64,000 nucleotides of DNA from Bilabrum cf. latius (taxonomy: Eukaryota): contig OZ237735.1 of assembly GCA_965178125.1 (NCBI GenBank), positions 992,001-1,056,000 on the forward strand, in the 5' to 3' direction. Each line of letters opens with the position of its first letter. Positions within the stretch are counted from its first letter, which is position 1. The position numbers and the translations under genes are program-made. This document shows positions 1-47,100 of the stretch, piece after piece. The notes beneath the pieces are model-generated. The model was not told the DNA's origin. It did not search any database and saw only the letters and a list, made by a program, of their open reading frames with translations.

Positions 1-3000
1 ATCGTGGCTGTCCTTGACATGGCGACAACGATTGCAAACGACGCAGGTCTGGGTTCTCTGCTGACCGAAGACTCATCTGCAGTAGCCATCGATGCGCTAT
101 GCTTGGAGGGATCTCCTAGGGGAGAACACATTGCAACCAATGTTTTGTTCTAGTTTTTTCCAGAGCCACCATCGCATCAGCTGCCCGAAGAGGATCTTGC
201 AGCTCTTGCTGTTCGAGTTGCTGCTGGCCTGCGATTAGCTCTCAACACGGCATTTCGCCTGAAACAGTTAGAATCTTTTGGTCAACCTGGTCATATATTT
301 GAGGTGGACCCCACTGAAGCCCTGCAAGGACCCATGGGGGGCTTCGGGCCGTGGAGAAACGGGGCGTACTTTGACGCCATTCGTCTGTCTCCCAGCGGTG
401 GCACCCGTGTCTGGACTCGCTGGTGCAGCGCCACAGAAACTTCCATCGTAGCAGCACGGACAAAACAGCACATGGACGGTTCTCGGGACGGCTCACCTGA
501 CTTTGCTACGGTGGGCACACGGACAGCGGATGTGACAAGTTCAGGACGGGTATCGCGTGCAGCTGGTGCCAAACCAAGGCTATCAGCTGGTCTGCAGGCT
601 GCTATTGGGGTGGGTCCATTGAACTTAGTTGGGGGTTCGCTAGGGGTGTCAATAGAGCTCATTCAAAAGCAAAGGAGGCGCCAGAGCGTAACTGAGCGAG
701 CGAAGCGGCTGTTAGACAGCGACGACAAGCTCGTTGGAGACTCGCGAAGGTCGCAGGAGCGCATGATCGATGCAAGGCGGAGAGTTGTAAATTCGGGCGA
801 CCTTCGCTCCGCGCTTGCGCTGCTTGCCTTGGAGCTGCACTGGGCGTTTGCAGTTGCTGCTGGATTTGCTGAGCAAGGCGGTCGCTCCGAGGAGGCCGCC
901 TCCTTGCAGAGCCTCGCGAGAAGGAGCCGCAACCTGGGCGCGCATGATTCGTCCAAGAGCGGCAAAGTTGCTTCAAAAGTCACAAACGACGACATTCTTT
1001 GGGAATCTATGGGTGATGGGTCCCCAGATGCCCCGGCTATTCACTGGTCGTCAATCTTGCAAAGCATCGATCGATCCGTTCCAAGTGACCATGCACAGAC
1101 CGCTCATGTAGAACCGCTGGAGCGTGCAGAGGCACTTAGCATAGCTGAAACTGCCGTGGCGGTGCTTCGTGTCCTCCAGGAGGACACTGCAGCCGAAGGA
1201 GTCATCAACATGGAGCTTCGCAGGACCAACTCTTTGACCCCAAAGCTCGCTAGCGAACTCGTGCACGTGCTTGTGCACAAGAATGATGCCGAGTAGGCAT
1301 CCGCAGTTGTCGACTGGCTTGCCCGCAGTGGCGCACTTTTGCACCCTCATGCTCTGGTTTAGATCATGCGGTCCCTTTGCAAAGATCATAGCTACCAGAG
1401 AGCTGTTCAGATTGGTCTGGTGGCTCTCCGACTGCTGCACTCTGACGAGAGTGGGCTCCGTGTGTACGAGAACAGGATTGCATCTGAGATCTTAAATTCA
1501 TTGATTCGAAAGATGCAACGTGACCACTTGGCTTGGATCCGAGGAATTGGACCTAGCACTGGGCTTTATTCGGCCGTTGTATCCGGGCACGTTGTGCGTG
1601 GAAGCGAACAAGTCGAGTAGGATGATACAGAAGATGAGGACGGCCATAGTGGTAGCAGGACAGAAGAAGATGTGCCACAGTCGCTAGTTCTTTCTGGTTT
1701 TGGTGCTGACAGTATCCGAAGAAATACGAGCTTGCGACGGCTTCCCCGAGCAGGCGAAGTTACGTGCGACGCACGATCGCTGTCGGTTGTTGAAGAGGCG
1801 GCATTTGAGATCATACGAAAAACGGCCCTCAACGACATGTTGTCTAGTGACGTCTTCTTTGCAGCCGTGATGAAGTTCTTTGTGGGCATATCGAGGCCCT
1901 CGCTCGCATTGGCTGCGTTCGAGCAGTCGCTGTGCAGCACTGAGCCGCCGTCCACTTCGATGGTGCAAGCCTTGGCTCTCGCGTCGTCTGCGTGTGGAGT
2001 ATCGCTTCCAGTAAAAATGGCTGCGTCCTCTCTTGTTCTTCCGGCTGTCCGGACGTTCAGCGAGCTGGACAGTCACGGCCGTGGCGACTCAGACTCAGAC
2101 GCAGATGTGGAGGGGCCCGCGGCAACACATCTGTAGCAGCAAGCTAGAACTGGGAGCTCTCGTGATTTGTTTGCTGATTTTGCCGCCGACAGGTTGCAGC
2201 AAGTGTGGTTTCCGTCCGACTCGCACGCCTGGGTCGCAGAGGAGACCCACCACTCATCAGAATGGAGTCCGCAATCTAGGCAGGGCGGGACCTTCGTGGA
2301 GGACGTCGTCGTGCCTCCAACAGGTTCTAGCCCTGCTGCGAGGTACACCCCGACACAGGACACTGTGCAGCAGCCTGTGGTTCTTGGGATGCTGTCTGAC
2401 CCGGATGCATCTTCGCGTGATGTACTCAGTTTCCGCGAGAGTCGCAGTCTCGAACGGCTTCCTACGGACTGGACGAGGCTACGCGATATCGACTAGGTCC
2501 TCCGCGCTTCGATTATTGCATTGTAGTCGGTAGGCGATTGGAGTGGTGTGCAGGACCTTTTGGAAGAGGTTCTCCACGAGCGCAGCCCGGGAGCACCCCC
2601 TGGAGAGCACACCGTCGTTGGGCTGCTCCTATGCACCGCCAAGTGCGGCAGACCCGAAGCAGCTGGAGCTGCTGTGATTGCTTCACTTCGTGCATCCGGT
2701 GCACTTGAAGAGCTTCCTGGTTGGACTGTGACATCAACTGACGTGGTGGAGTACTTGATCAGCAAGCTCGGGGTCACAGGCCCAGGGGAATCTGGAGCAG
2801 CAAACTCGCCGGGCACAGAACCACGCAATGTGACTGGAAGAGTAAGTTCACAGTCCGCTTCACAGTCTGCCAACTTGCCAGCAGGCCTGCTTCAAGACGA
2901 TGAAAGAGACACCTTTACACAGAGCGGATGGGGCGGTGCAGAGTCGCCGTCGTTCTACTCGGCTGAACTCGCTGCTGACGTGCAGTTGGATTCGGCGTCG

Positions 3001-3210
3001 GGCCATGGTGGTACCGCGGATGTTTGGAACCCAGAGGATCAGGCGTGGGGGTTCCGCGTTCGCTTGACAAGCGCTGGGCATAGGGATTCATTGGCTGAGG
3101 AACTCCGTCTCAGGGTCCCTCGGCTGCGAAAGCTGCTTGTAGGGGCACCTTCCACCCGGGGTGCGACTGGGCGTGCACCTCATCGAGTTCTTTCAACGGA
3201 GTCCAGCTGA
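1..3210 (+). CDS. Hypothetical large protein, 5'-partial (>1,069 aa with TAG read as sense)
   Basis: ORFs 304, 1366, 1672, 2167 and 2548 share one frame, broken only by TAG (e.g. 151, 1294, 1618, 2134, 2494). The frame is open from base 1 to TGA at 3208-3210. No family recognised. Confidence 0.7.
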
Positions 3211-19554: not shown

Positions 19555-22500
19555 TCACTTAAGCTTGTTCGTGAGGTGGTGCCTTGCCAGCAAGTTGTAA
19601 ATATCAGCCTTGTCGGACGGCTTGGGAAGACTTCCTGCGATCGGAGTGCCTTGGAAGTCTGCGCCCCCGTTGCCGCTGTGCGCGATGATTGTGCAAGCCC
19701 CGACCTAGGCCTGCTTCTTGATCAGCTTGGTAGCTTCGGCCCCAGACATGCCGGGCAGCCCATTATCCATGAGTACGAACCAGTTCGGCAGCCCAGCGGG
19801 GTGCTTCCCTGTCTTTGCCTCGCGCTTCATGTAGTCGAGAGCCGACTCAGCGGTGCCGTGCGACACGATGTGCACGCGCGACTTGTCCACCATGTCCGGT
19901 TTTGCAAGCATGGCTTCCATCTGTTTGCGGACTGTAGCCTCGTCATCCACGATCAGAATCACGGGCGAAGGATGGTCACCACAAAGCACCGGACGGTGCC
20001 CGCCCGCACCCGCGGAATCCAGGGACTGTTGCAGCACCTGTGGAAGCCTGACCCAGAAAAAGAGCAGAGAACCAACCCCTTCGGCACTGGCATATCCGAT
20101 CAAACCACCGTGCAGAGCCACGGTTGCATCCGATATCACCAGCCCGAGACTCGCCCCTCCTTCGTGCAGCATCAGGTTGCTCGACAGCAGTTGCCGGGAG
20201 AGCATCAGCGCATCGTTGTGACTAAACTTTGGAGATTCTCCTCGAACCCATACCCATCCACTCAAGAAGCGCGGTGCTACCCATCGGACCCTTGATGAAA
20301 GCAGCATGCTTTCTAGGATGCCTCGGCTACCCGACGACCCCTGCAGCCGACCAGCCGTCGAACCTGAAGCACCTTGGTGGTTGCTATTGAAACTTCTGCC
20401 CTCATACACCTTGCGATGACTTCGGCTGCGCTGGGGGGGCAACTTCTGCCTAGAACCGCGCCTACTGGACTGCCTAGTCGCGACCGCTGCTCCATGCCCT
20501 CCTGCGTGCTAATGCTAGTCAGACGCTACCTCAGACTCTTCCTCTCCACCCAGGGGGTCGTCCAGCATGTCGATATACATCGAAGTGATGGCGCTCCGAA
20601 TCCAGGACAAGCACATGGGGGCACAGTTCCTCTCCGTTCGGGGACTGAGCATCCCTTCCATCCTGCTCGCCATGGCATCACCTGCTCCATGGATTCGCCG
20701 CACCACGTCTTTCTGCACCTGCTTGTACGACTGTTGGCCAGAAGGTGCCGAAGCACCGCTCGCTGTAGTTGAAGCGCTATTGCTAGCAGTGATTCTAGCG
20801 CTGCTACCTTCGTGTTCGGGACTGTCGCGACGCAGCTGCTCCGACCAACCACACCCTGCTTGCCCTTCCCGCCCTGCAGGCTTGCCAGAGCCTTTCGATT
20901 GGTTCGAGCCCTAGGACGGCATGCTTGCAGGCGATGAGACAGGCGATTCGGCTGCTCGAGTAGAACGCAAAAGCAATCCAAGTTCATCGACGAGAGCTGG
21001 AGACAGCTGCCCAGATTTCCGCACCTGGTCTAGGTCCCATAGCGGTGGCGGCAGCGGAGAGAGCCCAGCCACAACCTGAGCAGTTCTCATCGAACCTTGC
21101 TCCCTGTCTGCAGATGCAGATGTATGGATAGCTTCCGCATCAATCCTTCCAGTCTGTGGGTCCACACCGAACATGCGCAGCATGCCAGACTCCGCGTCAA
21201 CGGGTTTCTGGATGTCGCGCCCGCGATGCATCGGCGACCCGGTGAGGTCTTGGACCTATTCTTCAAAGCCGTCTCTTGGAATACTCGAGCTGCACGCCCT
21301 TGAAGCAGCTCCTGATCGCCCCGGCATGGTACTCTCTCTACCAGATCGCGCGTCATCGCTGATGAGGCCGGACGTAGTCTGCTGGACACCGGCAGGAACA
21401 GATACCTTCGAATCAATGCGTGCATTTGCATGCGAGTCCTTGGTGGTAGAGCTGTGAGCTGTTGCAGCGTCGTATCCAGAAGAATGTGCCGCAACTGGGC
21501 CTAGGTCGGCCTCGGAGCCGCCCGAGTTCGGGTAGGTGACCATGCGTCGAACTCCAAACAGCAGAATGTTGAAGTACGCCTGCGCGAGTTTCGGCCCGTC
21601 AGCAAACGCCTCTAAGTGCACAGTCCCAGCTGCAGGCGCCGAGCTTCGCCGCCATGGCCCATGCTCTGCGCCGTGGCGGTCTATGCTGAGGCTGCGTAGC
21701 TGTCGCATTTGCACTTTGACTCTGTCCTCGGCAGGCTGTCGTGGACCTGGAGTTGCCCCCGAGTTGTTCGTTCCAAGCAGACCAGGCGCATCTGGCGTGC
21801 CGATTTCCGCGTCGGTAGCACCACTATTTCGTGGGCCGCTCTTGGTGCCAAGAACACGTGGTCCCGGTGTTGGAGTGGCGGTTGGCATTGCAGCCCCACC
21901 AACGGAGTCGACAGATTGTCGAGGCACCCCTTCCCCCCCAGAGGAGCCCCTGGAGAAGCGCCGGGACGACTGCATTGCGCCTGACCCTTCTCGTCCAGCT
22001 GATCCGCCCAGTTGCTCGCCCATATCTCTCAGAACCATGAGCTACATCGCGGCTCTCCCCGCAGCCTTCCACAGCTCGAGATTTACCCGAGCACCCATTC
22101 GGTCAGCGACGCTGAAATCGTTCGGTTCTGAGACCTCCTTGAGACCGAAAGTGGCAGTCTGTCCCACCATGCTACTGCTTGGTGAGCATAGCATATTCGC
22201 AACTGTCCAATGGATTGATCGCGGCATTTGGTTGCGCACCACGCTCTGCGCTCTCTTCACGTTCCTCACGAGGAGCTCGTCAATGTCGCACACCTGAGGC
22301 TCCACAACAAGCTTTCCATCATCAAGTCTCTGCAGCGAGAGAACATCCGACACAATGGCGTCAATTGCCTGCGCGCTCTGCGAAATCTGCTGGGCGCCCT
22401 AGTCTAGCACTTGCATGCTGTCAAGGAGACCACCCGGAGGGAGCTCAGGCGGCTCCGACCCAGCAGTTTCGGAGTGAGTAGCCGAACGCTGCGAATTGGA

Positions 22501-27557: not shown

Positions 27558-28979
27558 TTAGCTCTCTCCTTTAGAGATGACGGGGCTCCACTCCGGGCGC
27601 TCTACACGGCCGTACTGCACGTCGGTGATGGCCTGCCAGACCCTCTGGGCGAGCGGGCCCGCGCCCTCCTCTTGCTGCGGGTACAGCGGGCGCACCACCT
27701 TGCCATCGGAATCCATCGACTTGATCGGGCTGACTACCGCAGCCGTCCCGCACCCGAAACACTCCAGAAGCCTGCCAGCATCTGCGGCCCGCTCCAGCTC
27801 CCCCATGGTGATCTTCCTCTCGCTCACCTCGAACTCGCCCCACTCCCGCGCCAGCTCCAGCACAGACACCCTCGTCACGCCAGGCAGGATGGTCCCATCC
27901 AGCGGGGGCGTCACCAGCTCCTGTCCTGAGCCGTCCTCCTTCTCCAACAGCGCGAAAAAATTCATCGTCCCCGCCTCGGTCACCTCCCCCCCGTCCTCCT
28001 CGCCAAATACCCACAGCACCTGAGAGAATCCCTTGCCAGCGGCGAGCACCTGCGGCTGGATGGTCGGGCCGTAGTTAGAGCCCAGCTTGCTGGCGCCGGT
28101 GCCACCGGGCCACGCCCGGACGTATCGGCGCTCGGCCAGCAGGCTGACTGGTTTGAAACCCTCGGGATAGTAGGGGCCCACCGGCGCTGCAATGCAGTAC
28201 AATTTCACGCTGCCGCTCGGCCCCACGCCGAGGAAGGGGTGCGTGGAAATGGCTGTGGGTCTGAGGTACAGGGAATATCCATCGCCCTCAGGAATCCAGT
28301 CCTGATCGACACGCACGAATTCCTCGATGCACCTCAGGAACTCTTCCTTGTCAAAGGCAGGAAACTGAAGCCGGGTGCAGGAATCCCAGAATCGGTCCAT
28401 GTTCTTCATGGGGCGGAACATGCGAACATTGCCGCTATCATCGCGATACGCCTTCATCCCTTCAAAGCACTCCAATGCGTAGTGCAAGACACTTGCGGCA
28501 GGATCGATCTAGAACGGTGCATACGGGACGATCTTCGGCGACTCCCAGCCTCCGGTCTTCGTCCAGTTCACTTCCATCATGTGGTCACTGAATGTGGTGC
28601 CAAATGTAAGCTCCTCTTTAGGTTTCTTGGACTTGGGCGCCTTCGTCTTCTCGATAACCATCCGTGATGACTGCGGCAGCAAAGATGGGGAGCACTGAGG
28701 AGCACGTGCCACGTAGCGCTTGCATGTGTCCGTGTCAGACCCTATTCATGATCCAGATGCAAGCGAAGGGATTCAATAATCATAGTTGTACCGGTGTTTG
28801 GAGAACAGCGCCAACACAACCAGACTGCGGCGATCAATCATGGCAGTTGCACAAGGGAGGCTCACATCAATGCCACCGCCAACGGAGGCAGCTTCCGAAG
28901 ACATGCGCTGCACTGAAGGCCTTCCGATTGAGAGAACTCTCGCTGAAATTCGACTGCTTGACATAATGAGCCTGTTCAT
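27558..28979 (-). CDS. BCAT: Branched-chain amino acid aminotransferase, probably mitochondrial
   Basis: Motifs FGTTFSDHM, LHYALECFEGMKAY, YLRPT, KLGSNYG, EAGTMNFF, ILPGVTR and GCGTAAVVSP. Arg/Ser-rich N-terminal presequence. Intron 28671-28865. In-frame TAG at 28509-28511; ends TAA 27558. Confidence 0.95.
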
Positions 28980-29141
28980 GATGAGTTGAGTGACAATGCG
29001 TTGTTAATTGGCAACCGCACCATCGTGCCAATTTTAATGTTGCGAGCTAATAAATAACAACATTCAAATCGGATAATGAACGTTCATTGGTCGGAAGCGC
29101 AAAAAAGGCGCATTTCAACCTTGTCCTCCTGCGGCAGGTAC

Positions 29142-30428
29142 ATGCCAGCTTCCGCTCCATCGGACGCGCAGACGAAGACTATAGCAATGGAGCAGCCAGA
29201 ACCGCAGACCGGAACTGGGAAGATTGCCGGGGTGGTTGCGTTCTACTTTGTGATTAGCATTTCTCTCGTGTTTGTGAACAAGACCATTCTTAGCTCAAAG
29301 GAGCTGTCCATTCCGGCGCCTCTGGCAGTCACATGGTTTCAGTGTCTAGTTTCAGCCATCATTTGCTACGCTGTAGGGGAGCTTGGACGTAACGCGAGCA
29401 AGGGCAGCTTCCTGTACTAGTTTCCGGCTCTTCGCATCGATCAGAAAACCCTGTTCAGCGTGGCAAAGCTGTCATTTTTCTTCGTGGGAATGATTACGTT
29501 TAATAATTTGTGTCTCAAGTACGTAGAAGTATCGTTTTATCAAGTGGCAAGATCGCTAACGATTGGATTCAATGTGCTCTTCACTTGGTTGCTCCTCGGG
29601 GAGCAAACCACTGCCCAGGTCGTTGGCTGCCTTGCCATTGTTGTCATGGGCTTTTATCTCGGTGAGACGTATTCTGTGTGGCGGATGGCTACCGCTGTGC
29701 CATTGTGCCATTCCAGTGCAAACAGCGCTCGGCGTTCGTCTCCGCTCCTACCCTGCCCCTCTCCCTCCGCAGGAACCGAGTCTGAAGTGAACTTTAGCCT
29801 ATTAGGAGTGATCTTTGGAGTTTCATCTAGTGCGTTTGTGTCCTTGAATTCAATCTTCATCAAGGAGGCCCTGGGATTCGTGAAGGCTGCGAACGTGGTC
29901 GAGAAGGGCAGGGACAAGATGTGGCTCCTCAGCGGCGTCAACAACGTGATCGCCACGGTGCTGTTCCTCCCGCTGATCCTGGTGTCTGGGGAAGTGGACA
30001 TTGTGCTAGAGCACTCGGACCAGCTGGCCAGCCCCGCCTTCTGGGGCAGCATGCTGCTGAGCGGCGTGCTCGGGTTCCTCATCGGTATCGCCACGGTCAT
30101 GCAGATCCAGGCCACCTCCCCGCTGACGCACAACGTCAGCGGGACTGCCAAGGCCGCCGTGCAGACCGTCCTGGGACTGCTATACTTCGGGAACGAGACC
30201 AACGTGACGAACATGACGGGCGTGGCGCTGGTGCTCGGCGGCTCCCTCCTGTACGCCTACGTGAGGCAGCAGGAGAAGGCCGCAGCAGACGCGGCGAAGA
30301 AGGTGGCCCAGGCGGCCCAAGTGGAACTGAAGGGCGCAAGCGCGGGCCCAAGCGAATCCGAGCTGGTCACTCGCGGTGCCGCCGCCGCCTCCTCCTCCGG
30401 CGGAGCTGACCGCAAAGTCGAGCTGTGA
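29142..30428 (+). CDS. SLC35C1: GDP-fucose transporter-like nucleotide-sugar transporter (SLC35C1 family)
   Basis: Motifs FVISISLVFVNK, TWFQC, GMITFNNLCLKYVEVSFYQVARSLT and TSPLTHNVSGTAKA. In-frame TAG at 29418. A 111-nt in-frame intron at 29662-29772. Start may be 29142 or 29187. Confidence 0.9.
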
Positions 30429-30568: not shown

Positions 30569-31459
30569 TCACAGGATCATGCACCACTTCGATTTCTTCT
30601 TTGGCTTCTCGCGCGCCGACAGCCCGCAGCGAATTGCTTGGTCGAAAATCGCCTTCAATCCCGTTGTGTGAAGCGCACTGCACTCCATGTACTGTACTGC
30701 ACCAATCTCGCCGGCCAATTTGGTACCATCCTCAGCGGACAGCGGAGCGCGGCCTTCCTCCTTCAATTCTGCAAGCGCCTTGGGGTCTTCGCGCAGGTCT
30801 GTCTTGGTACCGACAAGAATAATGGGAACCCCTTTCGCGTGATGATCGAGCTCTGGCACCCACTTCCCGCGCACGTTCTCGTAGGATGCATGCGAAACCA
30901 CGCTGAAGCAGACTAAGAACACGTTCGTTCCTGGGTAGCTCAAGGGCCTAAGCTTGTCATAGTCCTCCTAGCCTGCAAAATGAATCCAAACAAAAGGGAA
31001 TGGGGGGCATAGCATGAATGGTAGGCCCCACAGCATCACGGCGTGACTTGCAGCTGCGGCAGTGTCTGCAGCCAAACTCACCGGCAGTGTCCCACAAACC
31101 CAGGTTTACAACAACACCGTCCACCAAAACGGATGCTGAGAAGTTGTCAAATATAGTTGGGATACTGCGGGGTTGGAACTTGGGAGTTGCAGTGCGTGGG
31201 CGAGCGCTAAGGCGCGCCAAGAGCAGCACCGCGAAGTTTACAGCAGGTGTGCTACGCATAGTAACTCACTACTCCGTCGGAAATTGGCTGCGATGAGTAC
31301 GAATACGCTCTATCAAGGCGGGAAGTGAGATGGGCTGCCTAAATTTCGAGTGACCGTCGAAACAGCATCTCACTTGTGGGTGTATGAAATCAGCATGCAG
31401 GTCTTGCCAACAGCGCCGTCCCCGACGACCACTGCCTTGACACTTTCATCACTCGCCAT
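30569..31459 (-). CDS. RAC: Rac/Rho-family small GTPase
   Basis: Exons 31459-31374, 31287-31270, 31164-31082 and 30972-30569. Motifs [55 protein letters not shown], polybasic tail and CAAX CMIL; TGA stop. Confidence 0.95.
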
Positions 31460-31678: not shown

Positions 31679-34600
31679 TTACACTATGGAGGCGGCCTGG
31701 TCGCGCTTCCCCCCCGCGGTGGAGGCTTCCCCTCTGCTGCCTCCACTCAGTGCTCCGCTGTCGACGCGGCGAATTTTAGTGCCTTCCTCTACCTGCTTGT
31801 TGTCCTGCCCAGGAAATGGAACCTTTGATATCGAGGTGGAGCTACCCTTCCGCATGCTGCGAGAGTCAGAGCCGTGCAGCGACCCAAGCCGGCGCGTTGG
31901 TGTGCCGCCGTGGCAGTGCGGCAGGCAGGTGCACCACCCTTTTTTTCGCAGCCATCTCAGGACCGCTTCCGTGTAGAACATGGCCACGAAGCCGGCAGGT
32001 ATGAGCGCAATGGCGCTGATGACTGTTCGGACCCACAGCTCCGCCTGCGTGCTCTCCCTGGCTATCTCCTCCTCCTGCGCCCTGGCCATCATCTCGAATG
32101 CAGCCACGCCCACAAGGCAACCGGCCATGATGTTGTAGCTGAGTCGTACCCGCCACTCACTGAGGGCCTGCATGGTCACCTGTGAGCCCATCAGAGCCAG
32201 AGCGATGAGGAAGAGAGCTCCGGCGCGAGCCAGGGGAGGCTCTGCCAGGAACACGCCAACGAATGCATACAGGTTCTTGCGCACGAAGAACCACGCTTCG
32301 TACCACAGCCTGTGCTCATGGTGCACCCACGCGCCGAATTCAACTCCTAGATCCTGCAGGGTGTCCATGCGGATGAGAGACCACCGTCTGTGGCGCTTGC
32401 TCTTCTTGGACCTGAGGCCGCCCTTGCCCTTGCCCCTGCCCTTCCCCCTGCGCCCGCGCCGGCTCGACAAGATCGCCTGGTCCGGGACAGTGCTCCACCG
32501 CTCTGTTGTTCTGGTGGGTGCCAAGATTCCGCTTTGCATTTCGCTGTGGCTACTCAGCGATCCAACCCGGCTGCCCTTGTTTGCAGTGGAACCTGCCGCG
32601 CTCCACGCCTCGATCACTACTGGCCTCCCGTCGCTGCCTTCGAAGCTTGGAGCAGACGGCTCTCGGGCCGATGGAAGCATATCGTCGGCATTGTCAGGGT
32701 CGGCTCTACCCTTCTCTCGGGAGCTAGTAGCTGCAGAATGCACGTGCGAGCTCCCATGTTGAACCGAGTGGGCCTCGCTCATGAGAATCGCCGCGTCTGC
32801 GCTGTCTACAGACCCTGTCACGGAAGACCTGGATGCGACGGATTTCATTGCGAACGATTCCGAGTTCATCGAATTCCCTTCGCTGAAACCCTCGTCGGCT
32901 GGATCTCCGCCACGGGCAATGATGTCGCGACGGGCCTGCGCCACCTGCTCCGGATGGAGCACAAACCAACCGTCGGTAGCATGCCCGGCCACGTACCTGC
33001 GATACGAGTCTGATGCTCGCAGTTTCGCACAGCAGCATGGCCCAAAGAGAGGCAAGGAGGCACAGCGAAGCCTTGTCCACTGGAACACGATCGCCACCCA
33101 GAAGCTGATACCGGTAAACTTGCCGTGGCGCAAAGCCTTCCCACCCCCAAGCTCGTTGAACATGACCCAAATCAGTGCAGTTGGAAGTCCAACCACGGCA
33201 ACAGCCACCACTGCAGCCATGACTGTGGCTGCCACAGTATGAGACGGGGTACCGCACTCTATTGTCAGCTGCGATCGCATGAGCGATGTCCCGGCAACCT
33301 CGCGGCACGACATGAATGCCAGCGCCGTGGTGATAACCGATGTATAGGCAATCAAGACGAGCCGCCACAAGGCACTGACGTATTTCATCAGCCAGGAGCT
33401 ACCCAGTTGCGCCGATGGCATGGGCAGCACAGCAATTCCCTCTGCTTCCAAATCCTCCGACTCTTCGCGATCACTGCCAGAGTCGTCAGGCCCATGAGTG
33501 GTTGACTTCTTCAAACCACCCCCCCAGTTGACGGCGGGGGTGTTGCGACTATATCACTGCAATTTGGCGCGGGGTTTGCCCCATACTTTGCCCCGGGCTA
33601 CTCTTGAGTGCCCTGGCTGGAACCCGAGGTCTGAATGCGCACCGTGGGAGCAGTTGTCGCCGCCGCCTGTTGCTACTGCTTCCTTGCTGAGTTTTCGACT
33701 TCGATCGTGTCTGGCAGGCAGGAGTCACCGCAGCACACGAAACAACAAAAACTACATTGTCGCACTCCATGATGTGCGTAGAGAGCACGGATGTGGGAGT
33801 GGCTGTGCTTGACAGACTTTGTCCGCACATCAAAGTTGAGCGCGAATAGGGCATCATCGCTTATCTGGGACGCACGCTCCATCGGCACTTCTCCTGTTCG
33901 CGACTGCAGCACCTCGTCTATGCGACCAGCATCAGCTGAACACGGGAAAAAGAAGGCACCCCAGCCACCCATGCTCTCCTTCACAAGGTGGGCTTTCCGA
34001 AACACACCCTCCAGCAGAAGGGCAAGCAGCACTTGTAGGATCAGCACGGTCGTCCACCCCAAGCTGAAGAACGCTGACGAGAAAGGAGCCAGCGGAACCA
34101 GGCAGGGGAACTCCTCGTCGCCGAGGAGAGACGAAAAGTCAAGAGCTGAGATATCCAACCGAATTGAAGCCATCCTGGAAGCACCCATGATCACGACTAG
34201 CATCTGGACAAAATCAGCGTACACCTTGAAAAGAGCAAAGCCCCCGGCGTCGTTGTCGTTGCTTGCCAACAGCAAGAATGCTACGACAGCGAAGCCAAGA
34301 AGTAAGGCAAACACAATGAACGGCGCGTTCGTACGGGTGCATCGCACACATGACGATCCGAACGGGGTGAAACCTTCGGCACACTCGCCGCACAGGGGGC
34401 TGTCATCAACTCGTCGAAACCCACAACGCTAAGGCGAGTCTAGGGAGCAAAACCCTGTGGGACTATTAATGCAGCACACGTCCGGATCACACCGATAGAG
34501 ATCGGCCAAGTCATCCGGATTCTACCAGAAATCACGCGCAGCCGCAATGTGGCTCCCTCCTGTGCAAGCTGCCCCTCTTGGGCACTCACGGCACACGCCC

Positions 34601-37600
34601 TGGGCGTCCAGGCTGTACGTGCCTTCTGGACACGGTACGCACAGCTAATTTGAGATGCGATACTCACCAACTTGGCATTTTATCTCTGTAGGCACGATTG
34701 GGCTGCTGTCACACAACACTTGGAGCCCCACGGCTTGCCTTCCGGCGAGCAGGACATCAGGTGGCATCAGACCAACACCAAAGGATGCTAGAGGCACAGC
34801 TGTTACACTTGGGTCAAGCATCCACTACAGGAATGCAGCAGTGATACGACCGTCCTCGCACGACAAAGCAGTATACCCGTCCATCTGGACAAGAGCCGAG
34901 GCCGCAGCGGCATCGGCATTCCCGCCTGCGGCAAGCCCCGCCGAATGCGTTTGAACGGCCGCAGTTGTAGACTAGAGAGATTCTGTGGACGAGAAGAACA
35001 GCCTTGGGACCATGGCGTACACAACGCCTCTGATGGGCCAGCAACCATCGGGAGTCACACTGTCTGTGAATCGCCACGACTCAGCCTAGAAAACATCCGC
35101 GCGGACCGTTCGAAACGACGATTGCTATGTTGTTCCGTTCACCGATGAATTTACATGCTACTCCACGGACACACAGTCCTGAAGAGACTCCGAGCTTACC
35201 GTCACTGCGTTGGGCTGACCATCACTACCCTGCACCAGCAAGGCTGCAGCTTCAGCTCGGACCTCGCCCACCTGCTGGAGGTATCCAAGCATTAAGTCTC
35301 CGTCCAGAATAATGGCCTCCATTTGACCTTCTCCTTGCACACGCCTATGAGACCCGGCTCCAGTCTGGGGCCAGAAGTCCAGATCAGTCTCAGTAGCTGC
35401 CTGGGCCGCGGAACGAGCTTGCTCGTCGTTGCTGGGTGCCAGAGCCAGAAGGCGGGCGCGCATCCAGGCCAAGAATGCCGCACTTGACCGTCCAAGTGCA
35501 GCAGTCATCAGGCGGGTGGACTCGCTTGGCGCCGCCTATACGAGCACTTTGATCGGCTATGCTGGCAAAACGCTCCCAAGTTCTGGGTTGTCCTGTTGCA
35601 GGGCAGGGGCATCCCAAGAAGTCACCGTTCCCATGTAGATCTGAGCGAGTGTCTCCATAGACAGTCGAAGCTAAGTGGATCCGATCGCAGACACTGAGTA
35701 AACCGGGGCCACGCCAACCACTGCCACAGGCAGGACCAGCGACTGGAACCTGGTACCTGCTGTGGAGCCATCTGCTGCAGCAGCGTCTCCGCCTCGGTGG
35801 GTGAGAGCAGCGTACCCGGGTATGGCGGCCGCTGAGCCAGCAGAAATGAGGGATACGTTCGCTCCAGGGAAGACGGCTGGAGCGCTCGGTGGGAGCCCAA
35901 TCGCTGTAGCTGTGGAGATCCTCGCGCCTGGGATATCTGACCAGCTAGTCGCTGGCGGTCTCAGCAGCAGGGCGAACCTAGCATCTCCAGAGCGCAGATA
36001 GCTGCTCGCCGTGTGTCCGAAGGTCAGTGTAGCCCCAAGAGCCTCTGCTTCAGATGTGCCCGTTTCCGTGTTGCTGAACTGCAGATTCCGGTGTGCGCTC
36101 ACCGGATCGCTGTAGCTCGTGGAGCGCAGAATGTCGCGCAGGGCACCAACGGCATCATCGAAGTCGACCCCTTTATCTTGGTCCAAGGAGTCTATCATCG
36201 ACAGCCCGCGAAGGGTGCTGGTGCCACCGACGCTCCTGCTACCGCTGGCCGAGGCACTGGCTGTGGTGCTCGTGCTTGGTATTGAAGCACCATTGTACTC
36301 CAGATCAACTGCTGGATCCACGACAGCATATGCACTTCGAAACAAATCGAGCACAGGTACCAGGGTGGACGTTCCAATGGCCGGCACAGCCTGCTGTTCC
36401 TCCACGGCAAGGGCGGGGGACCCAGCGCACTGCACTTGATGGAGGAGTCGACCGAGCACCTGATCACGCACTACCGCAGGAAGGGTCGCAAAACCAAGCC
36501 GAGCAGCTCCAGCCGCTACTACGGGTGACGTGTAGAACCACTGCCAGAACCGGACAGTTTCAATCCGCTCGCGACACAAAGCCTGCACGGCGTCATTGCC
36601 CAGCAGAGCCACGGCGTCGGCCTGCGAGTCGGTAGCCGCAATCGCAGCAGCCTGCGCGGCTTCATCGGTAATGGCGGTACCTCGGGCTTGTGCAAGCGGC
36701 AGTACAAGCTGTCTGACGGTAGTCGTCCTGAAAATGATGTAAGTGTACCCTGCCGCGGGCCACGCGAAGGATGAGGCAGCGTTTGACAGGTCAGCATTCA
36801 GCCTGTCGTCGAATCGCCCCCCGAGCTCCATCAAGGCAAATAGCACCCCATTGATGTCTGCATCCACAACAAGCCCGGCTCGGTTGCGTATAAGTGCTAC
36901 GCTAAGCCCGCGGTTGATGGCCTCGTTCGCCACAACGTATCCAATGGTGCCTTGCTTGGCAACCACACGCGATGCCACCCCTCTGTTCCCACTCACGGGC
37001 TGTAGCTCGCTTCGAGTACCCCCAGGGACGCTTGCATTCGTGACCGGCCATAAAGGCGCAGCTAGAGATCCGTCCCCGTCGGGTAGAGCGCTCGACTCGA
37101 AGAACGGCGAGGCGGCGCGCAGCATGCTCGCGAAGATGGCCGTGGTTCCACTGCCCCGGGCCCTGACCACGCGGATGATTGGAATGTCCGGGAACCTGCC
37201 ACTCAGATGCGGATTCTCGTCTTCGATTCGAGAATCATTCCAGAACAATACCGTGCCGGCGAACACGTCAGCAAGCAGCTCGCGCGACATGACAATCCGG
37301 TCGCCGACGGTGACGCCGGGAGAGATGTCTGAAACCGTGCTAGGTGCAGGTGCAGGCCCCGCCCTAGGCTGCAATGGCACATTATACGTTGGGACGACTG
37401 CAGCAGCGACAGTTGGAAACATCTGCAGGTCTGGGTACGTGCTGTAGTCGTTGTCGTCAAGTAGCGAGTCTGACCCTGCGTACTCCACAGGGTTCGCCCT
37501 AATCTCCCGTTTCCCTGATGAAGATCCGACAGCTTCATATGTTACTTCCTGCAGCGACAGACGGCCTGGAGCGAGACGAGGTGATCAGTGTCTTGTTGGA

Positions 37601-38384: not shown

Positions 38385-40833
38385 ATGTCTGGAAAAGGGG
38401 GACGCAGACTGCAAATTCACGATGAATCAGCGTAAGAGCATTCGGGTGTGCGTGTATCTATTGGTAAACCTCTGCAGGTGGTAGACTGCGATACCTTGAC
38501 AGCTTTGTAAATCGGTCGCAGGGGCAAGCATGCGGGAGCACGGCCGATTCTCGTGTCTCCTACTGACGTTGAAAAGACGACCGAACGTTTCCATGCTTTT
38601 CCAGTCTCAAAGTTTGGGTCAAGTGCGTGGATAAGGCAGCATGCAGATCTTGAACGGCTTAATACGTAGGCTCACATCAATGCGCAGTACCAGGCTGATC
38701 CATACGTGCTAGAATCGTTCATTACGTTTGAAAAGGTGCCCGAATTGCTGAAAGAGCTGCTGGCGGCCGAAATTTGGGCTGATAAGGTGCTGCCACGCCT
38801 GGCAGCCGATGTGTCTCAGCAAAACTCTCTGCGTGCCTACTATCTCATTCACCATGAAGCTGTTCTAGTGAATCTTCTGGAAGTTTTCCTGTTTCACTCG
38901 TATGCGGCGGAAGCGATGGGCGACGGGCTGGTGGACCTGGTTGACTACATTGCCCGACGGATGCGGGAGCTGATTGCGAGGTAAGGCTTGCGGCTTGTGA
39001 AGAGGCCCGCGCGCATTGCTTCCGGATGACCCACACGAGTATTATCCGATTATTTCCTGAAGTCGCAGAACCTTGCGGGAGCAGAAGGAGGCTCGGGACC
39101 GCCGGAAGCGCCGGAAGAAGGCAAAGCGCAAAGGCGCCAGCGCCGTCGCATCCGGCGCGTCGACATCCACCGGTGGCTCTGATGGTGGTGCTCCAGACAA
39201 GCTATCACAGGCTCGACAGGCAGCACGAAGCTACGCTGCGAGAGTCTCAGGGCCAGGGGCGGTGCAGGAGCAGCTTGCGCAGCAGCGCCGCGACATCCGG
39301 TTGAGGGTGTGTGTGACGAGTGTTGCCTTGCTGCGATACCTGTGCGAGCACGCCAAGAGCCTCCCCCTGGCGTGCTTTTCCCGCATCGTAGACACGCACG
39401 ACCTTCTCATGGCAGTGGTGCCTCTGGTGGAGAACCCGCCGTGGACCAGGCACCTCACACCCGACACTGCCCCGGAGGACGCTGGGCTGGTGCTGGAGCC
39501 GAGGTGGGAGAAGCTGATCGAGTTCAAGTGGACTGCCGTGCAGCCCGCAGACCTCCTCAAGCTGACCCCGACCGAGGCTCAGGCATGGCTCGTGGTACAC
39601 TTCCTGCTGTCTTCGGACGAGTTCAGGAAAAGCTACCACCTGCACTCGTCACGCAAGGGCACCCTCATGCGCCTCAGGAAGTACCTGAATGACACGCTGT
39701 GCGACCAGCTTCCGGTACTGCGGCATATGCAGCGCTACCTCGACGAGCTTCAGGTGGCAGAGGCCCCTGAACCCACCGACATGGCCGCCCGCGGGCTCAG
39801 GTCGGCGGGCCTTGTGCTGGAGGCGGTCCCTGAGGTCACCGCGGGTCTGGTGCGGCGTGCCTTCGAGGATGCGGGGCTGAGTCCGGACGGGCGCTTTGAG
39901 GCACGTGTGGCTGCACTGCCGGCGGGTGAGGGTGAAGACGAGGCTGAGGACGACGATGGGGAGGGGTGTGACATGCAGCAACCAGCAGGCTTGAAAGCGA
40001 AGGGAGGTTCAGGTTCCAAATCGAATCCAGCAGGGGTGGAGGTGAAAGCCACAGGTAGCAAGAAGGTGGTATCGAAGAAGGCTCCTCTCATTCAGGTCGT
40101 GGAGCCAGCGGTGGCAAGCTCTGCGGCTCCGTCTAGCGGGGAAAGTGCTCCAGCTCAGCATTCTTCACGCGAGCAAAGGCCAGGCCAAGGCACAGTGACA
40201 GCAACAGATGGCACGCCGGGCTCTTTGGACACCGACAGAGGAACAATGGCTGGCGACGCCACGCCGGACCGTCACAGTCACATTGTGGGCGAAGCATCAT
40301 CTGCAAGTGGTACCCCCGCCCCCGCCCCCGCCCCATCACCGGCGGTGCCCATCCGTAGCCTCCTCATCACAGGGGACGGACCCAGCAAGGGTGGCAGCAA
40401 GCGTGCCCTCACGTCCTCACTGATGATGAGCGCTGTGGCCACACGAAGCATAGGCCCCGATGGAGCCGTATCGTTGGAAGAGACTGCTGCTGCTGCTGTT
40501 GGCACTAGCGCTGGATCTGCTGCTGCTGGCGGCAGTTCCAGGGCACAGGCCAATGGGCCCTCCCAGGGCAGCGGGACTGGAAGGGCGAGGGCGAGGGCGA
40601 GGGAAAGCCGAATTGCGGTGAAGAACCCGTGGGAGCGGGTCGCCAGAGTATGCTCAGGTGTAGCGTTTTCCAGGGCAGATCGCGAGGAGCCCGCGATGCG
40701 AGCTGTTGCAGAGCTCTACACTACCCCAGAGTTCGAGGCTGGGTTGACCGAGATGGGTGCCCCAGCACCCGGGAGCAGCTCTGCAGCTAGCGGGCGCAGT
40801 GCTTCTGTGGGCGCTAAAGTGTAGGTTGTATGA
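38385..40833 (+). CDS. ZMYND10: ZMYND10 (BLU/DNAAF7)-like dynein assembly factor lacking the MYND finger
   Basis: Motifs FGSSAWIRQHADLERLNT*AH, LLKELLAAEIW, YYLIHHEAVLVNLLEVFLFH, LVDLVDYIARR, THDLLMAVVPLVENPPW, EAQAWL and LRKYLNDTLCDQLPVL. Intron 38981-39068. TAG at 40822 is read through to TGA 40831-40833. The first exon/start (38385) is tentative. Confidence 0.85.
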
Positions 40834-40975
40834 GCTGCTAAGGGAACATGCATGTCTGTCGAAGCACTCGAAGCCACTGCGAATCTCGCCACTGGCAGTT
40901 GCGGAACTTTCCGTCCCGGCTCAACGAACCCCCTGCAGCTGTCGAGCTGGCGATATGGCGCTCACGATTGGACTG

Positions 40976-42466
40976 ATGTCCGGCAAGTTGTACTTGGATG
41001 ACTTGCGAGGGTGGATTTTTGATGAGCAAACGTCAGTGTCCTACTTATGGCTAGCGAGGGAGCTGGGATGCTCATCAGAGGACGCGAAACGGTAAGCACA
41101 TTCGAATTCGAATATGTGCTTCGAGGTATCCTCTGCTTCTTGTGTGGTATCGGAGTCCGTACCCGTTGCATTGATTGTGGTGGTTCATTTTAATCAGTGC
41201 AGTATTCTGGCTGAGTTTTCTGAGGGTCGTACCGATTTAGAGGTACTTGTTTGTGTTGTAGGCTTATCCCACGACAACGGGATAGAATTTGCCCTGTTCA
41301 CCCAAAACGAGGACTTCGAAACAAGTGAGTCGACCATCTTACCATGATTAACTTAGGCGTAGCCATTGCAAGAACCAATCTTGCCAATTGAGTCCTCCAC
41401 CCACGCTGCAGAAGTGAAACACAGATTCAGACGATTGCTCGGTCAGCATATTTTCTCCGTCTCTCCGCGAATGGAGCGACCACAACGAAACGGTATGGTT
41501 TCGGAAGTAGTGTGTAGCCCGCTGCAAGAGCAGTCTATTACGTTGTCTGATTCGAGTTCGGATGCGGGGCAGCGATTTCGCTCCAACCGATCGTCTGCCT
41601 TGCAGCACACGAATGTGCGATTGGCGCCACCCGCCTCCCATATTGCCAACAGTGGAGTGAAACTCCACGGCTAGAATGGTGGTGCTCGTAGTGTCGGCAG
41701 CGGCAAAGCCACTGCCACTGGCAGCAGACAGAAGCCGGTTCACGAGCGTGCGAAAGGCCGGCCCCAAGTAAAGAGCAGAACCGCGGCAAGCTTCTTCGGT
41801 GCGTCCTCCACAAGCAAGCCAGGCAAAAAGAAGACTCAATCTGGACCCAGAACCCCCTCTAGCCAGATGGCGTCCAAGAAGGGCATCCTGGGCTAGAAGA
41901 GAGTCGCAGCCAGCGAGCCAACTGAGGCCATGTTTGACGATGAGGCGTACGAGGATGACGATGAGAAGTAGAAATCGAAAGAGTCTCGAAAGTCCGAACC
42001 TGCGAGAAGTATTGCGGGGAAGAAGCCCGCCAGAGCAGCTGTGGATGAGAGCAGCGACGAAGATGAAGATGAAGATGAAGACAGACCAATTGCCGCCAAG
42101 GCTGGACCGTCCGGCAGCAGGAAGGCGGAGGCATCTCCTTCGAGAAAGCAGAAGCCAAGGAAAAAAGCCAAGGAGGCCCCAAAGTTTGGGAAGGTCAAAG
42201 TGCTCGAAGATGGACCCTCCAGTGGCCCGGCTGTCAGGAGGGCTCGAAGGGAGGTCACCTTCATGGACGAGAACGGGTACCTTGTAACGAAGGAGGAGTG
42301 GGTAGAGCTCGAGGTCCCTTCTGGTACCGATACTGCTGTGCCGAAACAGGTGGCAGGTTCAGCATTGCCTACCGCTCAATCGAAAGCAACGGCTGCCGAA
42401 GGCCGCAAACCCGCTGGAAAGCCCAAGCAGCCCAGCCTATCAAGCTTCTTTAGGAAGTCAAGTTGA
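40976..42466 (+). CDS. POLD3: DNA polymerase delta subunit 3 (p66/Cdc27)
   Basis: N-terminal LYLDDLRGWIFDEQTSVSYLWLARELG, C-terminal TFMDENGYLVTKEEW and PIP box KQPSLSSFF. Introns start at about 41092 and 41325. In-frame TAGs at about 41672, 41894 and 41969; TGA stop. Confidence 0.85.
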
Positions 42467-42683
42467 GATGCAGCATGATGGGTCGCACAGGTTCGCACCG
42501 TTGCCGGATGTTGCCGACCCGGATTTAGATACGGAAACTTGGTTCTCTCTTTCAAAAGGCATGTGCGGTTTACAACAAAACATTGAACCGCGTGCACTAC
42601 CTGCACTAGGAGCCAAAACTCTGCAATATACATCCTTGATAGGCTCACCTTCCCTCCCATACTGAGAGCTAGTGCGGCCTTTG

Positions 42684-43478
42684 ATGCATCGTCAAGCCAT
42701 GCGGAGGGTGGCTGGGATAAGGTTGATGCAACCGCTACTGCGGATGGCTGCATGGGAAATGAAAGCCTCGCTGGAAAGTTAGCATCGTGCTGCCGTCATG
42801 ACCAAGGCAGTACGCCAGGGAAATGATTCGAAGGAAGCATTGCTTGGGACAGTCCCGAATGCATTGTGTACTTTAAGGATAGTGGCATCTCCGGTCGCAG
42901 CCTGGCACGTTGCTCAGGGGGATTTTGTCGTGGGCACGTGTTTATTTATGGCATGTGGCTTGTCGGACCTCGTAGATGGAGAAATAGCCAGAACGAATCC
43001 CGAATCGCAGAGCTCGGTCCTTGGATCATACCTAGACCCTTTCGCTGACAAAGTGATGGTCACATCGGCCATGATTTCGCTATCATACGCGGGTATTATA
43101 TCTCCAATTTTTGCTGCTTTGGTCATCGCCAGGGATGTAAGCCTCGTCACCGCTGGCTTTGTCATCAGGGCTAGGACGAAATCAAAATCCGCGGCTTTTT
43201 TCTCGACAACTGATAGCAGCTCTTTGCAAGTTGAGCCAACTACACTGTCGAAGTTGAATACTATGGGCCTACTCATGCTCATCTCTGCAAGCTGCTACTC
43301 TGCAGCGTTAGACTACGATTTCTCCAGCTGGGCTGGGCCAATTCAAGGGGTTCTTGGATTGACAACGCTAGGTTCATGGTGGCAGTACTATCGCACTTAC
43401 AACACAAAGACAGTTTTGCACGGGACGATTACTAGTGCAGTGGATGAAAGAACTGATGCGTTGAAGAACAGAGTGTGA
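42684..43478 (+). CDS. CRLS1: Cardiolipin synthase (CMP-forming) / CDP-alcohol phosphatidyltransferase
   Basis: TVPNALCTLR, CDP-alcohol motif SDLVDGEIAR...SVLGSYLDPFADK, VIARD and PTTLSKLNT. Reading through TAG 42780 adds an Arg-rich presequence from ATG 42684. PGP-synthase-type specificity is not excluded. Confidence 0.8.
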
Positions 43479-44101: not shown

Positions 44102-47100
44102 TTATGTCCGTGTCTTGATGATGAAGACCGTAAATGACCCACCATCGTGTGCTGTAAGTGATGAACCCCCAACGTTGGTGAAGGACACTCTGAAGGTTCT
44201 GCCGGCCGCTGGCGAGCCCTTCGAGCCCGAAGTTCCATCAGTAACAACCGTAGCACGCAGCCCAGCCATAGCCGCAACGAACCTTGGCTGTAGGATCACA
44301 AGATCTGTTGGATCAAGCTGCCAGTAGTCAGGCAGCCCAGCCGTGATGGTTGCATCCTCATCGACCGAACCATCTGAAACCACGGTGCCTGTGGTGAAGT
44401 CTAGAGTCGCTTCTCCCATAATTAAGCTATGTATTGGGGTTCCAGATGGCCCAATCTGTACGTGCCCATGATCCGTATCAGTGGTGGCCGATCCCCCTTC
44501 AATGACGATATCACCACCGGTCCCCGTCGTCGAATCACCAGCCTGCAAGTACACACTGCCAGCTGTCGTATCTGAGCTGCCCGCTGAGAGGCTCATCGAC
44601 CCCGAAGTATGTCCATTCGCAGTACCAGTTGACAGAACCAGCCATCCACTATTAGCTCCAGTTGACTGACCAGTTGTAAGTGAGAGAAGCCCAGACGATC
44701 CAGACTACGAGGTTCCACTAGAGACAGTAATCACACCAGAATCACCTAGATGCGACGCTCCTGAACTCAAGGTAATCCCCCCAGTTGAGCCACCCGAGGT
44801 AGTACCAGAGGAAACCGCCACAGGTCCAGTATCAGAGGCAACACTGGATCCAGAAATAACAGAGATACCGCCAGACACCGCGTTCGTCGATGCGCCCGAC
44901 GCCACGCTCACCGCGCCCGATGACGCTGATGCCGCATCGCCAGACCGCACAGTCACCGTGCCCGTCACATCCTTGTCAGACACGCCCGACAGCACGCTCA
45001 CGCCGCCAGATGCAGCCGACACCGCCGCGCCCGAGCCCACAGTCACCACGCCAGACACCGCGTTCGTCGATGCGCCCGACGCCACGCTCACCGCGCCCGA
45101 TGACGCTGATGCCGCATCGCCAGACCGCACAGTCACCGTGCCCGTCACATCCTTGTCAGACACGCCCGACAGCACGCTCACGCCGCCAGATGCAGCCGAC
45201 ACCGCCGCGCCCGAGCCCACAGTCACCACGCCAGACACCGCGTTCGTCGATGCGCCCGACGCCACGCTCACCGCGCCCGATGACGCGGATGCCGCATCGC
45301 CAGACCGCACAGTCACCGTGCCCGTCACATCCTTGTCAGACACGCCCGACAGCACGCTCACGCCGCCAGATGCAGCCGACACCGCCGCGCCCGAGCCCAC
45401 AGTCACCACGCCAGACACCGCGTTCGTCGATGCGCCCGACGCCACGCTCACCGCGCCCGATGACGCAGATGCCGCATCGCCAGACCGCACAGTCACCGTG
45501 CCCGTCACATCCTTGTCAGACACGCCCGACAGCACGCTCACGCCGCCAGATGCAGCCGACACCGCCGCGCCCGAGCCCACAGTCACCACGCCAGACACCG
45601 CGTTCGTCGATGCGCCCGACGCCACGCTCACCGCGCCCGATGACGCAGATGCCGCATCGCCAGACCGCACAGTCACCGCGCCCGTCACATCCACGTCGGA
45701 CGTGCCAGAGCCCACAGTCACCGCGCCCGACGAGTCAAGCGACGAAGACCCAGACAGCACGCTCACGCCGCCAGATGCAGCCGACACCGCCGCGCCCGAG
45801 CCCACAGTCACCACGCCAGACACCGCGTTCGTCGATGCGCCCGACGCCACGCTCACCGCGCCCGATGACGCGGATGCCGCATCGCCAGACCGCACAGTCA
45901 CCGCGCCCGTCACATCCTTGTCAGACACGCCCGACAGCACGCTCACGCCGCCAGATGCAGCCGACACCGCCGCGCCCGAGCCCACAGTCACCACGCCAGA
46001 CACCGCGTTCGTCGATGCGCCCGACGCCACGCTCACCGCGCCCGATGACGCAGATGCCGCATCGCCGGACCGCACAGTCACCGTGCCCGTCACATCCACG
46101 TCGGACGTGCCAGAGCCCACAGTCACCGCGCCCGACGAGTCAAGCGACGAAGACCCAGACAGCACGCTCACGCCGCCAGATGCAGCCGACACCGCCGCGC
46201 CCGAGCCCACAGTCACCACGCCAGACACCGCGTTCGTCGATGCGCCCGACGCCACGCTCACCGCGCCCGATGACGCCGATGCCGCATCGCCAGACCGCAC
46301 AGTCACCGCGCCCGTCACATCCTTGTCAGACACGCCCGACAGCACGCTCACGCCGCCAGATGCAGCCGACACCGCCGCGCCCGAGCCCACAGTCACCACG
46401 CCAGACACCGCGTTCGTCGATGCGCCCGACGCCACGCTCACCGCGCCCGATGACGCGGATGCCGCATCGCCAGACCGCACAGTCACCGTGCCCGTCACAT
46501 CCTTGTCAGACACGCCCGACAGCACGCTCACGCCGCCAGATGCAGCCGACACCGCCGCGCCCGAGCCCACAGTCACCACGCCAGACACCGCGTTCGTCGA
46601 TGCGCCCGACGCCACGCTCACCGCGCCCGATGACGCGGATGCCGCATCGCCAGACCGCACAGTCACCGCGCCCGTCACATCCACGTCGGACGTGCCAGAG
46701 CCCACAGTCACCGCGCCCGACGAGTCCAGCGACGAAGACCCAGACAGCACGCTCACGCCGCCAGATGCAGCCGACACCGCCGCGCCCGAGCCCACAGTCA
46801 CCACGCCAGACACCGCGTTCGTCGATGCGCCCGACGCCACGCTCACCGCGCCCGATGACGCGGATGCCGCATCGCCAGACCGCACAGTCACCGTGCCCGT
46901 CACATCCTTGTCAGACACGCCCGACAGCACGCTCACGCCGCCAGATGCAGCCGACACCGCCGCGCCCGAGCCCACAGTCACCACGCCAGACACCGCGTTC
47001 GTCGATGCGCCCGACGCCACGCTCACCGCGCCCGATGACGCGGATGCCGCATCGCCAGACCGCACAGTCACCGCGCCCGTCACATCCACGTCGGACGTGC

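Follow-up and report, generated by a model that had tools for sequence, protein, structure and literature searches.

Genes and open reading frames of the window

The window analysed here, a stretch of 64,000 nucleotides (nt) of Bilabrum cf. latius (assembly GCA_965178125.1, contig OZ237735.1, 992,001-1,056,000, forward strand), carries genes on both strands, densely packed over its first 44.7 kb (Table 1), nearly all of which contain in-frame TAG triplets. Our subject is the meaning of these triplets. We consider it very likely that the nuclear genetic code of this organism is a variant that uses UAG as an ordinary codon for glutamine while UAA and UGA remain terminators, a reading that an earlier note, made from the DNA letters alone, had proposed. 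The sample comprises 14 genes of this one window and ~7 kb of one relative (contig L001), and the content of guanine and cytosine (GC) is 54-60% over 1-44.7 kb.

Table 1. Genes and open frames of the window, with in-frame TAG triplets (number or position) and terminating codons.
Feature	Position	Strand	In-frame TAG	End	Remarks
Gene 1, 5'-open frame, 1069 codons	1..3210	+	7	TGA	no Pfam family
Protein kinase with PH domain, 709 codons	4000..6129	+	4	TGA	Pkinase 93.1 bits, PH 56.2 bits
OCRL-like inositol 5-phosphatase with ASH and RhoGAP-like parts, 781 codons	6980..9325	+	5	TGA	
Frame of 3389 codons	9385..19554	-	38, including tandem 16198-16203	TAA	no Pfam family
Large protein exon, ~2176 codons, receiver-like C-terminus	19555..26085	-	21	TGA	intron 26086-26224 upstream
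Branched-chain aminotransferase (BCAT), last exon	27558..28670	-	28509-28511 (CAG in relative)	TAA	intron 28671-28865
TPT-family sugar-phosphate/nucleotide-sugar transporter	29058..30428	+	29418-29420 (CAG in relative)	TGA	intron 29661-29771
Rac/Rho GTPase, last exon	30569..30971	-	30968-30970 (Gln61)	TGA	CAAX-like CMIL before the stop; intron 30972-31080
Membrane-protein frame, 624 codons	31679..33553	-	none	TAA	same RNA contig as PstS-like gene
PstS-like (PBP_like_2) domains with Cys-rich part	33511..37547	-	13	TGA	intron 37548-37634
Gene 11, conserved protein, family not assigned	38522..40833	+	38667-38669, 40822-40824	TGA	exons 38522-38978, 39067-40833
DNA polymerase delta subunit, Cdc27/POLD3-like, last exon	41412..42466	+	3	TGA	PF09507 37.9 bits
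CDP-alcohol phosphatidyltransferase	42666..43478	+	42780-42782	TGA	
Giant tandem-repeat frame, 6632 codons	44102..64000	-	44705-44707 only	TAA	runs off the window

With the three standard stops, the longest stop-to-stop open reading frame (ORF) in 1-44700, among ORFs of at least 300 amino acids, measures 637 amino acids. Reading TAG as sense yields frames of 3389, 2221, 1357, 1069, 781, and 709 codons, whereas reading TAA as sense instead leaves the maximum at 637 amino acids, and reading TGA as sense instead raises it only to 753, with no long frames. The 2221-codon stop-to-stop frame (19555-26220, minus strand) is that of the large receiver-like gene and holds 21 TAGs. The plus strand of these 44,700 positions contains 184 TAA and 695 TGA triplets (879 together, ~0.020 per codon), so the chance that a frame of 3389 codons would be free of both is ~e^-66. 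The tandem TAG TAG at 16198-16203, to which the earlier note had drawn attention, is real and corresponds to Q1118 and Q1119 of the 3389-residue frame. From Pfam and PDB searches, the frames obtained by reading through TAG include ordinary eukaryotic proteins, such as the kinase with its PH domain, the OCRL-like phosphatase, BCAT, the TPT transporter, and Rac. The statement that every gene contains TAG was somewhat overstated because the 624-codon frame at 31679-33553 has none; it holds for 12 of the 13 genes tallied below, and for 13 of 14 when the repeat gene is included.

Transcript evidence

Contigs of four public runs (X1, X5, X6, and X7) were mapped onto positions 24000-43990 of the window. 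Run X1 behaves as genomic DNA: its depth is even, a single near-identical record spans the mapped region, and joints of the intron type are missing. The window's assembly may have been built from this run, which is for that reason not independent. Runs X5, X6, and X7 belong to two other studies, and their depth is uneven. Their contigs omit nine short introns of 87-195 nt that read GT..AG in the sense of the genes, and X1 omits none of them. The introns at 28671-28865, 29661-29771, 30972-31080, 37548-37634, 38432-38521, 38979-39066, 41091-41201, and 41325-41411 are omitted in all three runs, and the one at 26086-26224 in X5 only. The 6.6-kb frame, which the earlier note had described as intronless, is not wholly so, since the X5 contig skips 26086-26224. 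X5 is labelled "RNA? (probably DNA)", and X6 and X7 are RNA by guess; a search of run records listed no RNA run, but we take all three as transcript-derived, since contigs assembled from genomic DNA would retain the introns.

The reported tables of all four runs contain no letter or gap difference from the window. The listed transcript pieces cover 25 TAG sites with 0 differences, in the genes for BCAT, the transporter, Rac, the PstS-like protein (13 of 13), the large receiver-like protein (7), gene 11, and the phosphatidyltransferase. Since these intron-less contigs keep the TAGs unchanged, editing, splicing-out, and sequencing error are excluded for these 25 sites. The explanation at stake is that the TAGs are an artefact, whether of sequencing or assembly, of RNA editing or splicing-out, or of pseudogenes. 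We found no point in its support, beyond the possibility that X1 is the window's own source and hence non-independent. Against it, the contigs without introns, from three runs of two other studies, agree with the window letter by letter; a diverged relative has in-frame TAGs of its own, two of them at common sites; and the frames show no build-up of TAA or TGA. The earlier note had itself raised edited or spliced-out TAGs and systematic misreading of CAG, and neither was found: the TAGs are retained with 0 other letters in the three runs without introns, and the letters are identical in DNA run X1 and in the runs of the two other studies. Misreading is also opposed by a strain 95-98% identical to the window, in which the standard-code protein calls P0123 and P0004 are cut at TAG sites. 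We consider the chance of an artefact to be negligible.

Codon usage and termination

Over 14 coding segments from 13 genes we tallied 12,156 in-frame codons, which include 97 TAG, 280 CAG, and 139 CAA. TAA and TGA were not observed (0 and 0), in agreement with the earlier note, which had found neither in the exons it read, apart from one homopolymer frameshift. TAG accounts for 97 of 516 glutamine-type codons (~19%), or about one in five. In the same codons, the share of those ending in A (NNA) within two-fold codon pairs is 0.31-0.35, and therefore ~48 TAA would be expected if UAA also encoded glutamine. The counts of CAA and CAG likewise indicate that A-ending codons are not avoided.

The stops listed in the earlier note (TAA at 9385, 27558, 31679, and 44102; TGA at 3210, 6129, 9325, 19555, 30428, 30569, 40833, 42466, and 43478) proved correct. 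With an additional TGA end at 33511, where a frame breaks, the 14 frames end in TGA ten times, in TAA four times, and never in TAG. Several of these ends can be judged from the proteins. TGA directly follows the CAAX-like end CMIL of Rac, and the TGA of the OCRL-like gene coincides with the C-terminus of its homologues. The TAA of BCAT is only a few residues away from the point at which 17 aligned homologues end, L001 has a BCAT TAA at the same place, and the BCAT contigs of X5, X6, and X7 stop at 27403-27406, which is 152-155 nt past the TAA.

These data bear first on the ordinary UAR code, in which UAA and UAG both mean glutamine, UGA is the sole stop, and UAA would be merely rare through GC-richness. 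It is by far the commoner variant (PMC5304391, PMC11687900). In three of the four frames that end in TAA, a TGA follows within 4-6 codons, so that frame length alone is no proof of termination at TAA there. If UAA were glutamine, however, the frames would be interrupted by TAA every few hundred codons, and the earlier note had singled out frequent in-frame TAA as the sign of this code; we find 0 TAA against 97 TAG in 12,156 codons, although CAA and CAG stand at 139 and 280. Under a model with TGA as the only stop, TAA occurs in real frames solely at the extreme ends (codon 3390/3393, 625/630, 396/439, 14/2235, and 32/488), and it is internal in wrong ones. In addition, BCAT would extend 43 residues past the C-terminus common to 17 homologues, and the BCAT of the relative is also closed by TAA. 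We regard the UAR code as very unlikely here.

A second alternative is a dual meaning of UAG, as glutamine inside genes and as terminator in some genes, depending on the context of the 3' end. Such codes are known in Condylostoma and karyorelict ciliates (PMC4967479, 10.1101/2022.04.12.488043). The sole place in the window where UAG could terminate is in gene 11, where the TAG at 40822-40824 precedes the TGA by three codons and the X5 contig runs to 40929, ~100 nt farther on; moreover, a sample of 14 genes is too small to establish that UAG is never a terminator or to exclude a minority of UAG stops. On the other side, TAG is needed as terminator in none of the 14 frames, and the C-termini that can be judged (Rac with its CAAX-like end, BCAT, the OCRL-like, and the Cdc27-like protein) end at TAA or TGA. 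This leaves dual meaning unlikely, if somewhat less so than the UAR code, and UAG as a plain sense codon the better reading of these frames.

The amino acid read at UAG

The strongest single site for UAG as glutamine is in the Rac gene, where the TAG at 30968-30970 takes the place of the invariant Gln61 of the DTAGQE motif. After removal of intron 30972-31080 the spliced message reads DTAG-Q-EDYD, and wild-type Rac1 in PDB has Gln at the same position. Further sites come from comparison with L001, a 7,075-base metagenome contig of a related species whose BCAT is 83-85% identical. L001 bears in-frame TAGs of its own, 12 of them within an open frame of 982 codons. Orthologous frames of window and L001 were aligned with TAG masked as X, which gave three good alignments: the large protein (65% identical), BCAT (83%), and exon 1 of the transporter (82%). 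TAG is present in both species at 2 sites. In these alignments a further 17 sites have TAG on one side only; opposite the TAG, the other species has Gln at 10 of these sites (9 CAG, 1 CAA). For comparison, the conservation of ordinary Gln in the three alignments is 0.52, and Gln makes up 56 of 1706 residues (3.3%). A fourth alignment (window 26411-27298 against L001 2538-3536) is 31% identical and has A, D, A, H, and L as partners of its five TAGs; it is left out of the 10 of 17 and included in the likelihood. Over all 22 one-sided sites, the log-likelihood is -49.0 for Gln, -69.8 for Ser, -72.1 for His, and -76.3 for Glu.

UAG could in principle be sense and stand for another residue, such as the Leu of exLh, the Ser of Scotinosphaera, or the Glu, Lys, or Tyr of some ciliates. 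Precedents with UAG alone changed to Leu or to Ser do exist (PMC11687900), and among the 17 orthologous partners 7 are residues other than Gln (S, S, P, P, G, R, and A). The likelihoods, the invariant Rac Gln61, and the predominance among the Gln partners (9 of 10) of CAG, a codon one transition away from TAG, speak for glutamine, and we think another residue most improbable. Nor does TAG align with random residues, a concern of the earlier note, since the residue opposite it is Gln in 10 of 17 orthologous positions and at the invariant position 61 of Rac. Two public proteins add to the case for glutamine: P0003 has Q at the TAG site of BCAT, and P0124, an orthologue of the OCRL-like protein (64-66% identical), has Gln at one of the two TAG sites it covers and Lys at the other.

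Host lineage

Among the best 120 matches of the OCRL-like search, the named rows are diatoms, bolidophytes, a dictyochophyte, and oomycetes, along with one partial "archaeon" protein. In the FastTree tree of this gene, the window falls in a clade of 24 rows (support 99) beside oomycete and ochrophyte clades. In the BCAT tree, the window joins Heterosigma in a group of 13 rows (support 88); fungi, dictyostelids, and oomycetes form other groups. Gene 11 has 11 matching proteins at E <= 0.001, and all four named ones are from brown algae (Ectocarpus, Hapterophycus). As judged from such single-gene FastTree trees, in which the sampling of named organisms is uneven, the host is probably a stramenopile. 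The remark in the earlier note that the organism does not look like a ciliate fits with this, as the named homologues are stramenopiles. An aphelid host, that is, an algal parasite similar to Amoeboaphelidium, was also considered and rejected: the code of Amoeboaphelidium is UAR = Gln (PMC11687900, PMC5304391), and fungal BCATs lie elsewhere in the tree.

Interpretation and proposed mechanism

At the scale of the window, the open frames, codon tally, transcripts, orthologues, and stops all support a nuclear code with UAG as glutamine and with UAA and UGA as stops, and we hold this reading with high confidence. Several points nonetheless weigh against it. There is some circularity in the absence of TAA and TGA, as these codons served to delimit the frames. 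The TAG sites of the kinase and of the OCRL-like protein fall on variable columns, occupied by K or L in kinases and by A/E/S/K/D and others in OCRL relatives, and are uninformative. ARAGORN found no tRNA gene in the window or in L001. To these come the seven partners other than Gln, the labels of the RNA runs, the TGA close behind most of the TAA stops, the late TAG of gene 11, and the small number of genes. An Rfam search of 1-44700 returned nothing at the gathering score.

Mechanistically, a tRNA-Gln with anticodon CUA would decode UAG and be unable to pair with UAA. No anticodon other than CUA reads UAG while ignoring UAA (PMC5304391). The release factor eRF1 would have lost or weakened its recognition of UAG and kept that of UAA and UGA. 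New TAG codons may have arisen mainly from CAG by C-to-T transition, an origin that fits the dominance of CAG among the Gln partners (9 of 10).

In-frame UAG is common to two clearly diverged species, including two identical TAG sites, and the change is therefore older than the split of the window's lineage from that of L001. Whether it represents an independent origin of a UAG-only change to glutamine within a stramenopile lineage, present in at least 2 species whose orthologues are 65-85% identical, we consider an evenly balanced question.

Other features of the locus

Within the 3389-codon frame, ~20 Gly-Ala dipeptides form a run at ~17950-18050 (residues ~505-545). The receiver-like C-terminus of the neighbouring large protein scores 28.1 bits against Response_reg, under the cut-off of 30.2, and a PDB search with it gave no match at E <= 1e-5. 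At the other end of this exon, a TAG at 26083-26085 forms the first three exon bases after the AG acceptor of intron 26086-26224, and its coding status hinges on the upstream exon. The transporter (plus strand) and Rac (minus strand) genes are convergent, with stops 140 bases apart (30428-30569). Transcript contigs of X5 and X6 span both genes, and the 3' ends therefore overlap or abut.

The PstS-like frame stops at a TGA (33511) just past a run of seven G (33519-33525, minus strand). The 624-codon frame at 31679-33553 overlaps it at 33511-33553 with an offset of one base. This frame is TRP-like by Atlas features only: an ESM Atlas search with it returned only TRP-like clusters of mixed taxa, which were of no help for placement. 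Transcript contigs of X5 and X6 cross 33511-33553 without a gap; therefore either the break is present in the RNA too, or two neighbouring genes lie on merged contigs. The break at 33519-33525 may be a frameshift, a split gene, or a decaying gene. For gene 11, an assignment to ZMYND10 was considered but found no support from any tool, with 0 Pfam families, and was dropped.

In the mapping of the four runs, depth spikes occur in all of them at 32420-32450, 40310-40610, 24929, and 30399 (for example, 118-175 in the bin 32004-32670). Many long-range joints and loose ends cluster at short GC-rich stretches of low complexity within coding regions. All of these look like simple repeats common to many loci rather than rearrangements.

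The last 20 kb of the window are a tandem array of 70% GC with periods of 90, 180, 225, and 405 (82% matches at period 405), and three listed open frames, spread over both strands, run through the array. The frame on the minus strand encodes repeats rich in Ser, Gly, Ala, and Val, followed by a non-repeat C-terminus of ~200 residues and then the TAA. Its product looks like a giant surface-type protein; the last 532 residues matched no Pfam family.

Significance

UAA and UAG almost always change meaning jointly. Lineages that split them are natural experiments on the co-evolution of release-factor specificity and suppressor tRNAs. We know of no variant nuclear code in stramenopiles, and full-text literature searches, with most subscription journals and supplements outside their coverage, found no nuclear UAG reassignment in stramenopiles or ochrophytes. 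If an independent stramenopile origin is true, no other non-standard nuclear code would precede it in that group, and its bearer would be a GC-rich organism with ordinary introns. Such an origin would also provide an independent replicate from a different supergroup-level lineage, GC-rich and common to diverged species, in which the uncoupling of UAG from UAA via tRNA-Gln(CUA) and eRF1 becomes testable outside ciliates and anaerobic metamonads. Genome and transcriptome reads of the organism are already in public archives. If true, the case would in addition test the idea that ties such code changes to base composition (PMC11687900).

A practical consequence concerns gene prediction. In a 95-98% identical strain, the standard-code protein call P0123 ends exactly before a TAG and P0004 begins at the first Met after another TAG, and the public protein sets of the lineage are therefore fragmented. 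Because gene prediction with the standard code fragments genes in this organism and in related ones, re-prediction is needed for these sets.

Comparison with known genetic codes

The published cases known to us in which UAG and UAA are split are few: Iotanema, Protocruzia, some phyllopharyngeans, one rhizarian, and Scotinosphaera (PMC11687900). The precedents named in the earlier note match those in this paper, which adds Protocruzia tuzeti and Scotinosphaera. UAG as glutamine with UAA as stop is known from Iotanema spirale, from Protocruzia tuzeti, and twice among phyllopharyngean ciliates (PMC11687900, PMC5304391). Iotanema spirale (Fornicata) resembles the present case in that many of its genes read UAG as glutamine, with no reassignment of UAA or UGA (PMC5304391). 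However, it is an unrelated anaerobic metamonad, whereas the named homologues here are stramenopiles, and its main stop is UAA (PMC5304391), whereas 10 of our 14 frames end in TGA and 4 in TAA. Protocruzia tuzeti and the two phyllopharyngean lineages likewise show repeated origins of a change of UAG, and not UAA, to glutamine (PMC11687900). These are ciliates, in contrast to a locus with 54-60% GC (1-44 kb), GT..AG introns of 87-195 nt, and stramenopile homologues.

The UAR = Gln codes (NCBI table 6) of many ciliates, Hexamita, Streblomastix, Ulvophyceae, and Amoeboaphelidium protococcarum share the change from stop to glutamine, presumably by way of a mutated tRNA-Gln, and a tRNA-Gln(CUA) is documented in such organisms (PMC5304391). 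In those codes UAA is sense too, whereas the 12,156 codons tallied here contain no TAA, and four frames are closed by it. UAG and UAA are also split in the rhizarian exLh, where UAG alone became Leu, in Scotinosphaera, where it became Ser (PMC11687900), and in the ciliate PL0344, with UAA = Lys and UAG = Glu (PMC10553269). Another amino acid is involved in all of these, whereas here Gln is ahead of Ser by 20.8 log-likelihood units. Genetic code 15 of crAss-like phages also reads TAG as glutamine (PMC9523058), but that is viral recoding in bacteria, whereas the locus studied here is nuclear and eukaryotic, with spliceosomal introns. What the window presents is a code of a rare type already known, in a host lineage that is probably new.

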